A stretch of DNA of 64,000 bases from Escherichia phage HMD-6. The position numbers and the translations under genes are program-made. Positions within the stretch are counted from its first letter, which is position 1; each line of letters starts with the position of its first letter. This document shows positions 47,398 to 54,660 of the stretch, one piece after another. The stretch lies in sequence record PQ505080.1. The stretch is one strand, 5' to 3'. Below the pieces are notes generated by a model. That model searched no databases. It saw only the letters and a list, made by a program, of their open reading frames with translations, and was not told where the DNA came from.

Positions 47398-47598
47398 TTA
47401 GCAATATTCCCAAAATGAACCATCTTCAGATGGCTTAACACGCTTACCTTCATGATCGACATAAGTGTAACCGCAACCTTCGCAGATAACAGGAGCTGCG
47501 TATCCTTCCTTCCATTGATCTTCTGTGATCAATCCTTTCAAATCTCCAAAATCTTTACCAAACAGCTCTTCAGAACAACTTTTGCAAAAATCAGCCAT
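47398..47598 (-). CDS. small zinc-ribbon protein
   Basis: 66 aa; C-x2-C ... C-x2-C; RBS GAGGA upstream on the - strand. Confidence 0.45.
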   Translation of the reverse strand: MADFCKSCSEELFGKDFGDLKGLITEDQWKEGYAAPVICEGCGYTYVDHEGKRVKPSEDGSFWEYC

Positions 47599-47601
47599 TT
47601 C

Positions 47602-47979
47602 TCAGTCCTCGCATTTAACAAATTTTTCTACAGATCCACCAAGCACAGCTTGTTGCTTGATGGCACTTTCTTCATCATAGTGGATAGACTTATGTTCCGT
47701 GCCACCAAACTTACCTGTGTGAAAGGTGTGCACCCAAATCTCTCTAGGAAGGGATTTATTCTCTTCCTCCCCCAACTCCCACATACCCCACAAGTGATCT
47801 GTGATATCTCTGATGAAATATCTTTCGCCGAGGTTTGTCCACACACCTACCCCAACTTTACCATCTATCCCATTGTATACATCTGCCTCATACTCTTTTC
47901 CTGGTGTAAAGTGTACACCCATCATAAGGGCTGTTATTCCGTTAGGATTTTTAAATCTAACAAATTTTACTTTGCTCAT
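47602..47979 (-). CDS. hypothetical protein
   Basis: 125-aa ORF, tightly packed in the leftward operon. Confidence 0.45.
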   Translation of the reverse strand: MSKVKFVRFKNPNGITALMMGVHFTPGKEYEADVYNGIDGKVGVGVWTNLGERYFIRDITDHLWGMWELGEEENKSLPREIWVHTFHTGKFGGTEHKSIHYDEESAIKQQAVLGGSVEKFVKCED

Positions 47980-47980
47980 A

Positions 47981-48310
47981 TTACTTGATCCTTGCAGTTA
48001 CAGTAGCGCTATACCCCATGTAGTTATGAGACATAAAGAATGTAAGCCCTTTAAGTTTAGGATTCTTTCTAAGAAATCGTTTCAATTTTCGAATGCAATT
48101 AACACCATGATCATAGTTTGAGTAATTAAATTTAATACCTTGCTCCATCATAGTGCTTACTTCTTCATGGGTATGCCACTGTTGATCGTGATCACAAAAC
48201 CAATAACCAATACCTTCTTTTTCTTGGATATGCAACCCCCAAAATACTTTATGCATTGGATATTTTGGTTTTCTACCATGATAATGTAGTTTAATATTTA
48301 CATGTGCCAT
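47981..48310 (-). CDS. hypothetical protein
   Basis: 109-aa His-rich ORF, 2-nt gap to the next gene. Confidence 0.45.
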   Translation of the reverse strand: MAHVNIKLHYHGRKPKYPMHKVFWGLHIQEKEGIGYWFCDHDQQWHTHEEVSTMMEQGIKFNYSNYDHGVNCIRKLKRFLRKNPKLKGLTFFMSHNYMGYSATVTARIK

Positions 48311-48555
48311 TTTCCGTTTCCCTGAATATTAGAAGCGTGGGTGTAGACAAAACAAATGGCTTCGTCCATAGTCTTGAACCGTTTAGTATTATTTTTACAG
48401 TTTACGCCTTCCCACAACTGATCAGTGTGGTCTGCCAATGATGAGTATGTGTGATCAATAACCTCACCGATTTTTTCATCGTTTGCAATCACGTCCCAAC
48501 CACAAGGAGATACTTGTACAGCTTTACAATTATCTATTAACTTTCGTAGTGACAT
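48298..48555 (-). CDS. hypothetical protein
   Basis: Start taken at internal ATG (MSLRK...) preceded by GGAG; the full 167-aa track ORF would overlap the upstream gene by 79 nt. Confidence 0.35.
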   Translation of the reverse strand: MSLRKLIDNCKAVQVSPCGWDVIANDEKIGEVIDHTYSSLADHTDQLWEGVNCKNNTKRFKTMDEAICFVYTHASNIQGNGKWHM

Positions 48556-51904: not shown

Positions 51905-52161
51905 TACTCTTCCTCCATAGTTTCACCAAATACTTCGATACGAGCGTCAAGCTCTGTTGCTTTCAGTTCTCCAACAAAATCTTTCAGTTCTTTCTCGTCA
52001 AGATCGTATGCCCACACACAAGATGAGCATGCAGATTTCACGATTAGTAGTGTGGATACACGGCCTGACTCTGTAATCATGCTCACAATGGTTCCTACAG
52101 GGAACGTGTTGATAGCTTTTTTAACTGGGCGTTCAGCTTTAATTACTACTTCTGTTGCCAT
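51904..52161 (-). CDS. hypothetical protein
   Basis: Start moved to ATG 52161 (MATEVV...), 9 nt after GGGAGG; the track start 52170 lies in the RBS spacer. Confidence 0.4.
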   Translation of the reverse strand: MATEVVIKAERPVKKAINTFPVGTIVSMITESGRVSTLLIVKSACSSCVWAYDLDEKELKDFVGELKATELDARIEVFGETMEEE

Positions 52162-52176
52162 AAATAACATCCTCCC

Positions 52177-53637
52177 TTATTTGGCGTACTCGATTAATTC
52201 TACAGTTTTCCCAAAGCTTGGGATATAATTTTTATTATACCCTTCGGTGAGAACCCATAAAGTATCGTACTTTTTCCACTTGTTGTCAACAACCTTTTGT
52301 TCAAAGTTATGCTCAAAATATAGATCGGTCAGGACGATGACATCTTTTGCATTTGGTATGTTAGCGTCCAGATACTCGAACACGCAAGCGGCTGTTGTAC
52401 CCCATGTTGAGTGGACCTCGTAGTTGATCATCTCGTCGATGTTCCCGCGAGTGTATACTTTAACCTCTCCAACCTCAGTTGACCAACAGAACATTGTAAC
52501 CTTGAACTCTTTATACAGATTGCACAACCCAGTGATCTCATTGAACATTTTCTTTAAAGTTCTTTGTGAGATCGACCCAGAAACGTCTAAAGCCACCACA
52601 ATATCTATAGTGTTTTCCGGATTACGACCAGGAACAACAACGTGCTGATTCTTTTTTATAGCCCCAACTTTTCGCATTGTGCTGGTCAAAGATCCAGATC
52701 GGCGACCGGGTTTTCTGTAGGTTAGTTCAGCCTTTCGTTTGGACAACATACGTTGCTTAATAATGTCTATATAATTGATTACAGGCTTACCTCTGTTCTT
52801 GACAAACTCACGCACCGCCTCTGGGCAACGACCTCCGGAAGCTTGCATTGCTGCTTCCAACATGTCACCAGAGTCCTGCATGGCTTGATCTTTATCAGAT
52901 TGACTGATCACTGGCTGTGGCTGATCATACCCCATAGCCTTTCCAAGATCATCACTAGTGCCACCGTTACCACTCATGTGATCATCGGTTTGTCGTTTAT
53001 CTCCTTGAGAGTTCTCGCCTTTACCGTTCTTACTTTTACCGCTATTCTGATCTCTTTGCTTATCAAGAACCGCATAGACGTTCTCAGCAATCCATCCATG
53101 GAACCTCATGTCACAGTAGCAACTAGCTAAGAAGCCAAAAGGCTTACCTTTTACGAACTCAGTGCTTTTCCCCTTCGGGAAGAAAACACAAGGAGGCTTG
53201 CTAAAGTCAACCACAAGACCTGTGTTGATAACGTGATCACAAGCAATATTGAACAGTTCCGGCTCAAAGCTTTTACCACGGACCAGATGATCACAGATAA
53301 TATGCCCCACCTCATGTGACAGAAGAAAGGCCACCTCTTTCACAGATTTTGGGGAATAGAAAACCTCAGCCATCTCAAACTGCTTGTCAGTCAGAGATGC
53401 TTTAAGAATGGTTTTACGCTCATCTGCCAACCCCATAATGAACTCAGGGCTGTAGTAGATGCGTTTATGGTCTGTTGCCATAGTGGAGCACCATGTGTGG
53501 TTTTCTACGAACTGCAACCCTGACAACAGTGTGCCATAAAACGGCAGCTTTTCAAGAAGATACATGCGTGCTGCCTGCAGCATTCGCAAGGCGTCATCTT
53601 TTTGTGTGGCAATGATTTCTGAACTTCTGCTATCCAT
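52177..53637 (-). CDS. HExxH metallopeptidase-like N-domain fused to a VWA-like C-domain
   Basis: LSHEVGHIICDH (HExxH) in the N-half; C-half has DxSGS MIDAS-like motif (IVVALDVSGSIS); start taken at ATG (MDSRSSE...) with GGAG 5 nt upstream. Confidence 0.6.
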   Translation of the reverse strand: MDSRSSEIIATQKDDALRMLQAARMYLLEKLPFYGTLLSGLQFVENHTWCSTMATDHKRIYYSPEFIMGLADERKTILKASLTDKQFEMAEVFYSPKSVKEVAFLLSHEVGHIICDHLVRGKSFEPELFNIACDHVINTGLVVDFSKPPCVFFPKGKSTEFVKGKPFGFLASCYCDMRFHGWIAENVYAVLDKQRDQNSGKSKNGKGENSQGDKRQTDDHMSGNGGTSDDLGKAMGYDQPQPVISQSDKDQAMQDSGDMLEAAMQASGGRCPEAVREFVKNRGKPVINYIDIIKQRMLSKRKAELTYRKPGRRSGSLTSTMRKVGAIKKNQHVVVPGRNPENTIDIVVALDVSGSISQRTLKKMFNEITGLCNLYKEFKVTMFCWSTEVGEVKVYTRGNIDEMINYEVHSTWGTTAACVFEYLDANIPNAKDVIVLTDLYFEHNFEQKVVDNKWKKYDTLWVLTEGYNKNYIPSFGKTVELIEYAK

Positions 53638-53670
53638 TAAAACTCCAGAAGGGGCCAATGGCCCCTGTCA

Positions 53671-54660
53671 TTATTTAACGTGCTTGAAAATACCAGCCAA
53701 CTCGGTCATTGTCATGCGAGTGGTCTTCATAAGGTCTGTCATAGCCTTTTCCATGATTGGAGATACTACCATAAAGTTACCCTTGGTGAAACCTTTATTC
53801 CAGTCGGTCACTAATAGTGGTTTAAGTCCGACCCCGAGACGCTCACCAGTTAAAGCACAACATTTTCGAATGTACGTGCTCTTAAATTGACTGAATGATA
53901 GATCAACTTTCATACCTGCATCGTAGAACGTCTGACAATAGAAAGTGTAAGCTTTGGCAATCTCAACATCGTCAGGCAGTGCAGGAACCTCTTCTGTGAG
54001 CTCTTCTTCGTCCCCTTGAGGCTCTTTTTCCTCTTCGTAAGCCTGTTGCGTCATCTCTTCAATCTCCTCTACTACAGGCTCGTTTACAATGTCAGAAATG
54101 TGCTTGTTGGCTCCACGGTTAGCCATGAAGTTTTTAAAATCCTGCATTGGTGACATATCTTCCTCCCATTCTTCGTCAAAGAGTGCCAGTTTATCCTCTT
54201 CCGTCCCATATTGCAAGATGAAATCTTCAAAAGTGTAATCACCTTTCAATTTCTCCATGCGCTCTTCGCTCAGGTGGAGCATCATCTGCTGGACAATTTT
54301 TCGATCAGTTTTGTCTTTAATCAAGATTGCGGTCTTTTTATCTACCAGGCAGTCTTTCAGAGAGTTACACCTCAATCCTACCACACAACAGTTATCAATT
54401 GCGTAAGGACCTTCATCATCTATCCGCTCCAGAGATGGGTAGAAAGGATTCCCCAGCCCGTTTTCATCTGTGTGCATGTCGAAAGGTATAAGGGTATAGT
54501 CGCATACCCCCTCTCCTAAAAGTTTTTTACCAAATAGGAGGTATTCTTCCCATGACAGGTTGAACTCTATATCTCGTTTCCGTGCATTATTTTGTTTGCG
54601 TCTGTATTTTTTGAGCAGGCGCTCTAACTCTTCTGGTGTATAATATTTTTCAAGATTCAT
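53671..54660 (-). CDS. hypothetical early protein with two Cys-containing HNH-like segments and an acidic linker
   Basis: Start at ATG 54660 (MNLEKYY...), consistent with the leftward promoter; GVCDYT ... SLERIDDEGPYAIDNCCVVGLRCNSLK and YIRKCCALTGERLG resemble degenerate HNH/zinc-finger motifs without the canonical His. Confidence 0.35.
   Translation of the reverse strand: MNLEKYYTPEELERLLKKYRRKQNNARKRDIEFNLSWEEYLLFGKKLLGEGVCDYTLIPFDMHTDENGLGNPFYPSLERIDDEGPYAIDNCCVVGLRCNSLKDCLVDKKTAILIKDKTDRKIVQQMMLHLSEERMEKLKGDYTFEDFILQYGTEEDKLALFDEEWEEDMSPMQDFKNFMANRGANKHISDIVNEPVVEEIEEMTQQAYEEEKEPQGDEEELTEEVPALPDDVEIAKAYTFYCQTFYDAGMKVDLSFSQFKSTYIRKCCALTGERLGVGLKPLLVTDWNKGFTKGNFMVVSPIMEKAMTDLMKTTRMTMTELAGIFKHVK

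Follow-up and report, generated by a model that had tools for sequence, protein, structure and literature searches.

Four transcription units were proposed in the genome paper of phage rV5, one of them formed by genes 11-26, and the same work reported bidirectional promoters and a terminator located between gene 26 and gene 27, and named the product gp11 a probable homologue of the T4 protein Srd (Kropinski et al. 2013, PMC3606486). The counterpart of this unit in Escherichia phage HMD-6 is considered here: a block of 16 minus-strand genes, g1 to g16 in transcription order, at 47398-54660 of a 64,000-nucleotide stretch of sequence record PQ505080.1, hereafter the window. The block, equivalent to rV5 genes 11-26, forms the leftward arm of a divergent cluster of non-structural genes in an FV3-type Vequintavirus, and it is not new, since the unit, its divergent promoters, its terminator and its Srd-like first gene were all published for rV5 in 2013. 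On the evidence assembled below, it is fairly likely to be an accessory leftward transcription unit of host-interaction genes, with the roles proposed for g1, g2, g6, g10 and g13-g16.

Other described systems offer comparisons for parts of the block. Secondary sources describe T4 Srd as an early protein, first postulated to be a sigma decoy and later found to stimulate RNase E, binding the N-terminal half of that enzyme and speeding the decay of host mRNA. A MoxR-vWA pair with a peptidase fusion has been described in jumbo phages, with a proposed role in virion assembly (Iyer et al. 2021, PMC7824862). The small early gene arrays of T4, T5 (pre-early) and T7 resemble the block in being dense, co-oriented and mostly ORFan, with dispensable genes beside host-type promoters; some genes of those arrays are toxic or act in counter-defence, and the likeness to the HMD-6 block, which is known from sequence, is an analogy only.

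Relationship to rV5-like phages

Over its full 7.3 kb the block is 95.5% identical in nucleotide sequence to Escherichia phage FV3, whose counterpart, FV3_00011-00026, comprises 16 coding sequences on one strand, corresponding one to one with g1-g16 and flanked by an Ig-like lateral tail fibre gene and by a divergent arm leading toward a MoxR ATPase, a SleB-like hydrolase and rIIA. Matches at 90-99% identity were found in 121 phage records, almost all of them Vequintavirus (rV5-like myoviruses), with coverage of at least 80% in 112, and orthologues of block genes are kept in more than 100 phage genomes at the same level of identity (90-99%). The full 16-gene set is confined to FV3-type genomes, most relatives carrying 14-15 of the genes; Bas54 (MaxBurger), for which functional data exist, is 92.7% identical to the block region. 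As in rV5 genes 11-26 and FV3_00011-00026, the HMD-6 block consists of orthologues in collinear order, bounded by the lateral tail fibre gene on one side and by the divergent promoter on the other; like the rV5 unit, it also has sigma70-type promoters facing both ways at its 5' end and, at its 3' end, a rho-independent terminator that serves both directions. It differs from the rV5 and FV3 units by allelic changes only, with g13-g15 in the FV3 arrangement, which is absent from most other Vequintaviruses.

An identity of about 92% to 47398-54726 is also seen in sixteen GenBank records of the MG0656xx series that bear the name 'Campylobacter phage' (C7, C9, A112b and A135 among them) and list Campylobacter jejuni as host. 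Their host labels are doubtful, and contamination or mis-assignment is the likely cause.

Transposon data and the zincin-VWA gene

The block can reasonably be regarded as an accessory host-interaction module, and not as part of the replication or assembly core, because its Bas54 orthologues are largely dispensable on Escherichia coli K-12, its distal end is mosaic, its g13-g14 pair recurs in Krischvirus phages and its identity to a metagenomic relative is uneven from gene to gene. Transposon sequencing of Bas54 was reported in a 2025 preprint (bioRxiv 10.1101/2025.11.20.689424), in which bas54_0042-0056 are the 15 orthologues of block genes; g13 has no Bas54 orthologue and so lies outside the comparison. 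With TA-site saturation of 0.79-1.0, 14 of these 15 genes were classed as 'Non-essential' on K-12, and bas54_0043, the orthologue of g15 in a short form, as 'Reduced fitness' (10.1101/2025.11.20.689424).

The same study validated the MoxR ATPase bas54_0063, together with one unrelated gene, as required against the predicted defence system DS-28 of the clinical isolate CFE311, in which bas54_0063 had a log2 fold change (log2FC) of -7.23 (10.1101/2025.11.20.689424). In CFE311 the g2 orthologue was depleted 4.6-fold (log2FC -2.20, p = 0.0009, q = 0.009), the g6 orthologue showed a change of the same size (log2FC -2.28, q = 0.195), that of g5 a smaller and non-significant one (log2FC -1.32), and the remaining orthologues, including those of g3 and g4 between g2 and g6, ranged from -0.09 to +0.47 (10.1101/2025.11.20.689424). 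Since the g3 and g4 orthologues are unaffected, simple polarity is argued against and a gene-specific contribution of g2 is favoured. Within the block, evidence for anti-defence activity concerns g2 only, through its MoxR partner, and it is for the MoxR partner only that the counter-defence requirement was validated with cloned DS-28. The CFE311 values are those of Extended Data Table 8, sheet Data S6, titled K-12_vs_CFE303; the command line given in that sheet names the CFE311 sample, and the numbers are identical in a later sheet, so that a comparison with CFE303 seems to be absent from the table file used.

The features on which this evidence bears are as follows.

52177-53637, minus strand: g2, 486 amino acids (aa), zincin-like metallopeptidase plus VWA protein, by Pfam and motifs
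50941-51390, minus strand: g6, 149 aa, modelled as a six-strand beta-sheet with a three-helix C-terminal bundle
57300-58484, plus strand: MoxR-like AAA+ ATPase gene, in the rightward arm and outside the block; predicted partner of g2

The g2 protein matches the DUF2201_N putative metallopeptidase (E = 4e-28, 99.2 bits against a cut-off of 23.2) and the DUF2201 VWA-like domain (E = 6e-11, 42.9 bits against a cut-off of 26.4), and the motifs of both are intact, with HEVGH at residue 108 (HExxH) and DVSGS at residue 351 (metal ion-dependent adhesion site, MIDAS). An 'HNH endonuclease' label attached to g2 was rejected, no Pfam HNH match being found at E ≤ 0.1; g2 is a DUF2201 protein. Homologues occur in 670 phage records, including N4-like phages and jumbo phages of the Rak2/121Q type, and an AAA+ ATPase gene lies directly upstream of the g2 homologue in Certrevirus CR8, in A73, in the N4-like PGN829.1 and in 121Q. 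The HMD-6 genes thus compare with the N4 gp24-gp25-like or jumbo-phage MoxR-vWA pair in the peptidase-plus-vWA architecture of g2, in its intact HExxH and MIDAS motifs and in an encoded AAA+ partner; they differ in that the g2-type and ATPase genes of Vequintavirus and Seunavirus are not adjacent but split between the opposite arms of the divergent promoter, and in that a gene for a small protein of the g6 family accompanies the vWA gene. The product of 57300-58484 is a divergent AAA+ protein, its MoxR membership resting on gene context, and g2 is predicted to be a co-factor of this ATPase, acting with it from across the promoter.

The family of g6 is a narrow one. Its structural model is of good quality (predicted local distance difference test, pLDDT, 87.5; predicted template modelling score, pTM, 0.84), and g6 matches PVP-SE1 gp215 (E = 5e-13), whose gene overlaps that phage's VWA gene at the 3' end of the latter. 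A word-indexed search returned, among the matches listed, almost only proteins more than 93% identical to g6, and an exhaustive profile search of 1.84 billion representatives found 13 clusters of the family. A two-sequence profile comparison of g6 with CR8_118/A73_49 was weak (Prob 26%); a 14-sequence g6 profile reached 90% probability (E = 1.4e-6, 110 columns) against the genes of about 125 aa that in A73 and CR8 come right after the VWA gene. Among predicted viral structures, PVP-SE1 gp215 and a protein of Erwinia phage Hena1 match the g6 model. In Seunavirus, A73 and Certrevirus the gene directly 3' of the VWA gene is a g6 homologue, and metagenomic relatives keep the g6/VWA neighbourhood, so that g6 is, within a restricted lineage, a conserved neighbour of the zincin-VWA gene. 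By inference from this neighbourhood, g6 is a candidate third component working with the MoxR-VWA module. Some databases label g6 a 'tail protein', a name with no traceable basis and no supporting test.

The Srd-like first gene

53671-54660, minus strand: g1, 329 aa, Srd-like, by BLASTP against T4 Srd and by PHROGs

The product of the promoter-proximal gene contains two degenerate HNH-like 'Srd-N' modules, one at residues ~8-143 and the other at ~253-299, with a strongly acidic linker (~141-240) connecting them. In BLASTP, T4 Srd matches residues 8-143 at E = 9e-8 and the second module at E = 0.002, and g1 also matches PHROGs 3118, 4592 and 1400, with the annotations 'Srd anti-sigma factor' (E = 1.3e-9) and 'decoy of host sigma70' (E = 4.8e-12); PVP-SE1 gp218 is 40% identical to g1. 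Likeness to T4 Srd consists in an N-terminal module of ~100-140 residues with a conserved SLER-D...Y...N...N degenerate HNH-like core, and in the position of a promoter-proximal gene within a non-structural block. Unlike T4 Srd, g1 carries the module twice with an acidic linker and has no equivalent of the Srd C-terminal half, the identity between the two being 24%. Databases label g1 variously 'anti-sigma factor' and 'HNH endonuclease'; for the latter, no Pfam HNH match was found at E ≤ 0.1, and the position of the catalytic His reads SLERID, the His being lost.

By its homology to T4 Srd, the duplicated Srd-like protein would probably bind a host enzyme, in T4 RNase E, and this binding would bring about faster decay of host mRNA or would otherwise redirect host gene expression.

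Gene packing and transcription signals

54692-54720, minus strand: P_L, leftward promoter, TTGACA-17-TAAGAT with a TG extended -10, by consensus match
54734-54762, plus strand: P_R, rightward promoter, TTGACT-17-TATAGT, by consensus match
53650-53666, minus strand: GC-rich hairpin, AGGGGCC-ATT-GGCCCCT, lying past the g1 stop and ahead of the g2 start, -17.7 kcal/mol, z = -3.0
48696-48713, minus strand: hairpin AGGCCTC-TTTT-GAGGCCT just past the g12 stop, without a U-run, -14 kcal/mol, z = -2.05
48588-48617, minus strand: internal sigma70-like promoter, TTGACA-18-TATTCT with TG, in the 167-nucleotide (nt) gap between g12 and g13, by consensus match
47359-47394, both strands: bidirectional intrinsic terminator, GGGGCC/GGCCCC stem with an A-run before and a T-run after

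An earlier note on this DNA had described 16 minus-strand genes running from a divergent promoter to a bidirectional terminator, tightly coupled and preceded by GGAG-type ribosome-binding sites (RBS), as a single operon. The gene array, its two ends and its coupling are borne out: all 16 minus-strand open reading frames (ORFs) are present within 47398-54660, the promoter pair matches consensus, and the terminator is found. In transcription order from g1 to g16, and with the most plausible start codons, the gaps between genes are 33, 6, -1, 1, 15, -4, 2, 56, -4, -4, 51, 167, -13, 1 and 3 nt, the five overlaps being TAATG, ATGA, GTGA, ATGA and one of 13 nt; GGAG, GAGG or AAGGA precedes about 12 of the 16 starts. 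What stands of the one-operon claim is that the genes of the block, in a virulent myovirus, share one orientation and are translationally coupled; the internal promoter and the hairpins make a single operon doubtful. Because the 167-nt gap before g13 holds both a hairpin and a sigma70-like promoter, the block probably comprises at least two transcription units.

The two back-to-back sigma70-like promoters lie in the intergenic interval 54661-54802, with P_L ~25-30 nt upstream of the g1 ATG; in PVP-SE1 an equivalent promoter is annotated upstream of the Srd-like gene. P_R serves an arm that runs from a fucosyltransferase-like gene to the MoxR-like ATPase, a SleB-like hydrolase and rIIA/rIIB, with helicase genes as well. 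The first gene of this arm (54803-55702, plus strand) is labelled 'alpha 1-3 fucosyltransferase' in many records; its product has no Pfam or PADLOC match at E ≤ 0.01, and the label looks unsupported.

At the opposite end, the terminator (minus-strand fold -19.7 kcal/mol, z = -4.2) is common to the block and to the convergent lateral tail fibre gene of 1878 aa. That gene (41715-47351, plus strand) encodes Ig-like/intimin domains, and its Bas54 orthologue is non-essential on K-12 and depleted in CFE311 (log2FC -2.23). The hairpin between g1 and g2 has the same GGGGCC/GGCCCC stem as the terminator, with a poor U-tract and with the g2 RBS in its 3' tail, and it may be an attenuator or an element stabilising the g1 mRNA; the hairpin at the end of g12 is less distinctive, 8 of 200 shuffled sequences folding equally well. 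GC skew is negative over 46-54 kb, and when the region was scanned for Rfam families, tRNAs and repeats, nothing emerged beyond the terminator palindrome.

The sigma70-like promoters, the absence of late-type motifs and the analogy with other phages together suggest that the block may belong to an early class. The late-type motif of rV5, TGGTAAAATA, is enriched about three-fold in the window (17 hits against 5.8 ± 2.3 expected), with 13 of the 17 hits on the plus strand within 1-44 kb and four exact copies, at 6435, 11598, 26711 and 32221, in the structural gene region; the block holds one hit only, with one mismatch and inside the coding sequence of g1. The adjoining rightward arm encodes rIIA/rIIB, which is counted as pointing to a non-late class. 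In the sequence of events proposed here, the host sigma70 RNA polymerase would start at P_L soon after infection, and the transcript would cross the translationally coupled genes as far as the bidirectional terminator, while the second sigma70-like promoter, upstream of g13, would probably serve the four distal genes g13-g16.

Distal cassette and mosaicism

48298-48555, minus strand: g13, 85 aa (short form), PHROG 16603 over residues 1-85 of 85
47981-48310, minus strand: g14, 109 aa, basic and His-rich, adjoining g13 in Krischvirus too
47602-47979, minus strand: g15, 125 aa, two-module recombinant, PHROG 30425 at residues 1-69 and PHROG 3955 at residues 81-123
47398-47598, minus strand: g16, 66 aa, acidic, four-Cys zinc-ribbon pattern, C5-x2-C8 (CKSC) and C39-x2-C42 (CEGC)

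For g13 the probable form is that of 85 aa with its start at 48555, preferred over a less likely 167-aa ORF overlapping g12 because it has a good RBS and is matched over its whole length by PHROG 16603. Among Vequintaviruses it is found in FV3-type genomes only, and a tblastn search returned two FV3 records together with 59 Krischvirus-type records at 60-80% identity. With g14 it forms a pair (47981-48555; L011 3131-3708) that is likewise adjacent in Krischvirus (RB49/Phi1-like, T4-like) phages at 60-70% aa identity; in Phi1 baseplate genes 8 and 9 have between them both the pair, ORF140/ORF142, and a DNA methyltransferase. This distribution suggests that g13 and g14 form a mobile cassette of two genes, passed among E. 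coli myoviruses that are otherwise unrelated.

Mosaicism extends into g15, the 5' part of which is common to Bas54-type phages and the 3' part to rV5-type phages, with breakpoints at ~47767 and ~47838 inside the coding sequence and with the PHROG matches splitting at residues 70-81. The segment 47398-48722 is covered to at least 80% by two FV3 records only, other Vequintaviruses matching either nt 370-1325 or nt 1-441 of it. The last gene, g16, is by its pattern a putative C4 zinc ribbon. Taken together, g13-g16 would be a mosaic, recombining cassette with a predicted promoter of its own, exchanged with T4-like Krischvirus phages.

A divergent metagenomic Vequintavirus contig (L012, Logan SRR22580009, 4556-11577) keeps the gene order of the block, without g7 and g13 and with g3 duplicated, at aa identities that extend from 34% (g3, g11) and 39% (g9) up to 97-98% (g4, g12, g14). 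Such uneven divergence is consistent with diversifying or exchange pressure, without proving it.

The mosaic distal end and the very uneven divergence, as signs of modular assembly, would also suit a block that is a patchwork built by recombination from at least two or three units, each transcribed on its own and perhaps differing in temporal class, with its packing due to general phage genome compaction. The plus-strand structural genes are packed about as tightly; a hairpin followed by a sigma70-like promoter occupies the g12/g13 gap, and a stable hairpin follows g1; more promoter-like sites lie inside g2, g6 and g7; and six of the 15 minus-strand sites of the window fall within the block's 11% of the sequence (binomial p = 0.004). 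Set against these signals, the density of promoter-like sites in the region does not exceed that of shuffled sequence (22 against 16.7 ± 4.7), U-run terminators are absent inside the block, and 11 of the 15 junctions are of at most 15 nt or overlapping, which favours co-translation from long transcripts. Moreover, gene order is kept in a lineage in which many genes are only 34-82% identical, and the rV5 authors handle genes 11-26 as a single unit (PMC3606486). A patchwork of this kind is possible, if rather doubtful.

Small proteins of the block

49322-49801, minus strand: g10, 159 aa, minimal capless HAD-superfamily phosphatase-like protein, by motifs and model
51904-52170, minus strand: g3, 88 aa, acidic (isoelectric point, pI, 4.6), PHROG 10698 of unknown function
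51641-51904, minus strand: g4, 87 aa, acidic, start overlapping the g3 stop (TAATG), 96.6% identical in L012
51406-51639, minus strand: g5, 77 aa, acidic, ORF
50699-50944, minus strand: g7, 81 aa, ATGA overlap with g6, absent from L012
50130-50696, minus strand: g8, 188 aa, PHROG 12232 of unknown function, 56% identical in L012
49798-50073, minus strand: g9, 91 aa, acidic, preceded by a 56-nt gap, 39% identical in L012
49155-49325, minus strand: g11, 56 aa, basic (pI 9.7), ATGA overlap with g10, 34% identical in L012
48723-49103, minus strand: g12, 126 aa, Cys-rich and basic, eight Cys including CxC and CCCxH

That most of the genes are ORFans, as the earlier note had it, is right at the level of function, orthologues being abundant: g2 alone has a significant Pfam match, no protein exceeds an NCBIfam threshold, so that 15 of the 16 are without a significant match to either database, and 12 of the 16 fall in PHROGs of unknown function. 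A PADLOC scan of the block proteins gave no useful match, and PDB sequence searches with g1, g2, g10 and g12 gave none. The exceptions that the note named also hold, namely the zinc-ribbon pattern of g16, the Cys-rich g12, the HAD motifs of g10 and the HExxH-VWA protein g2, and the housekeeping functions by which it proposed that its view could be overturned did not emerge for block genes from Pfam, NCBIfam or PHROG. Its suggestion that such arrays encode host-takeover or anti-defence factors is supported for g1 by Srd homology and for g2 by an orthologue that is conditionally important beside MoxR, and is not supported by 12 of the 15 Bas54 orthologues, which show no significant effect.

In g10, residues D37, D39, T41, T67, K97, D113 and D114 are invariant in a 25-sequence alignment and make up the four HAD motifs (DxDxT, S/T, K, DD); PVP-SE1 gp208 is 47% identical, and the core of the AlphaFold2 model has pLDDT > 90. 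These motifs, and a putative Rossmannoid core, are shared with capless (C0-type) HAD phosphatases such as KDN-9-P phosphatase, with phage nucleotidases and with the phosphatase domains of polynucleotide kinases, from which g10 differs in being very small and below detection by every Pfam, NCBIfam and PDB profile; searches of Pfam, NCBIfam and PDB sequence profiles with g10 gave no match. It would be a small HAD phosphatase acting on a phospho-substrate, probably a nucleotide. Its neighbour g12 is probably metal-binding, to judge from its cysteines, and g3 is fast-evolving, being 34-39% identical to the two tandem copies in L012. The remaining small, mostly acidic and unevenly diverging proteins may by inference be strain-specific modulators of the host or of its defences, and probably are.

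Some record labels were not adopted, no test supporting them: 'TYW3 methyltransferase', given to g12 in some records, as well as 'polynucleotide kinase' and 'holin'. Paralogy of g3, g4 and g5, suggested by size, charge and an F-x-x-G-x-V motif seen by eye, was likewise rejected, an all-against-all BLASTP comparison giving nothing at E < 0.01.

The small genes g3-g5, g7-g9 and g11-g16 might alternatively be, for the most part, neutral or selfish passengers, or have niche roles in nucleotide or metal metabolism or superinfection exclusion, with no part in takeover or counter-defence. Insertions in Bas54 are costless on K-12 and without significant effect in the clinical isolate examined, the small genes match no defence-related or other profile, g10 looks metabolic, and the Vequintavirinae are broadly sensitive to restriction-modification and abortive infection. 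The retention of the orthologues, in more than 100 genomes, speaks for more than neutrality, as does the arms-race-like pattern of some genes that are extremely divergent or duplicated amid a conserved backdrop; the screens cover one or two non-laboratory hosts only, and for two block genes evidence linked to function is already at hand. We therefore consider a passenger status for most of these genes somewhat unlikely, and the host-interaction reading is retained.

Weighing the evidence

Several observations weigh against the reading of the block as an early, accessory unit of host-interaction genes with the roles proposed. On timing, a published Vequintavirus transcriptome was looked for in the literature and none was found; sigma70-like promoters are scattered genome-wide in rV5 (PMC3606486), so that promoter type is no marker of temporal class; and promoter-like sites show no excess in the region. 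On the module, g2 and the ATPase gene lie ~3.6 kb apart on opposite strands in the window, and the 57300-58484 protein falls below every Pfam gathering threshold (AAA_14 21.6 bits, AAA 18.7, AAA_5 17.7, bpMoxR 15.6). On the transposon data, the preprint authors did not comment on or single out the g2 orthologue, which is depleted far less than MoxR (-2.2 against -7.2), so that g2 may be only an auxiliary MoxR partner; after correction, the effect for g6 falls short of significance; and the 12 of 15 orthologues without significant effect stem from the one clinical-isolate comparison. Reports describe the Vequintavirinae as exceptionally sensitive to restriction-modification and as commonly hit by abortive-infection systems, and this sensitivity to restriction-modification argues against anti-restriction genes in the block. 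Finally, g1 is only 24% identical to Srd over the N-terminal module, with the C-terminal half of Srd absent, and the top Foldseek PDB matches of g10, while HAD-fold proteins, are weak (E = 3e-3 to 0.1, TM = 0.3-0.5).

The most specific of the proposed roles concerns the MoxR-VWA module. The g2 zincin protease-VWA protein would work with the MoxR-like ATPase encoded across the promoter, the VWA/MIDAS domain holding a target that the ATPase would remodel or load and that the protease of g2 would cut, while g6 would be a lineage-specific companion of the module; in some E. coli strains the outcome would be escape of the phage from the defence system DS-28. That g2, g6 and the MoxR-like ATPase form a three-part machine that finds a DS-28 component and proteolytically disables or remodels it is proposed tentatively and, as a whole, must be called unlikely.

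A role of the same three proteins as a chaperone/protease for virion (tail or head) assembly or maturation, the strain phenotype then reflecting assembly needs such as the tail fibres required, has published precedent. The proposal of Iyer et al. (PMC7824862) concerned group 2.2 jumbo phages and their MoxR-vWA pair, which includes an N-terminal metallopeptidase, and these authors also cite a MoxR-vWA system needed for tail assembly of the archaeal virus ATV; the presence of the pair in 670 phage genomes, N4-like and jumbo phages among them, is more core-like than arms-race-like, several tail-fibre genes change essentiality in the same CFE311 comparison, and there is the 'tail protein' label of g6. 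Such a role is nevertheless improbable, since the MoxR, g2 and g6 orthologues are non-essential for plaques on K-12 (TA saturation 0.91-0.94), the MoxR knockout is specifically sensitive to cloned DS-28 in K-12, where receptor and fibre needs stay the same, the named virion proteins of rV5 include no product of gp11-26, and the label on g6 has no traceable basis. For the Vequintavirus proteins, the sole experimental phenotype is counter-defence, not assembly.

Significance

As the re-description of a published rV5-like feature, the block adds little alone; its value is that of a map of unexplored accessory genes in a group of common, therapeutically used E. coli phages. The concrete lead is the zincin-VWA gene g2, perhaps with g6, acting with the MoxR-like ATPase against DS-28. 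If the three-part proposal were true, this would be the first MoxR-vWA chaperone-protease shown to be an anti-immune device, and the N4 gp24/gp25-type pair, present in hundreds of phages (N4-like, jumbo and rV5-like), would gain the same function.

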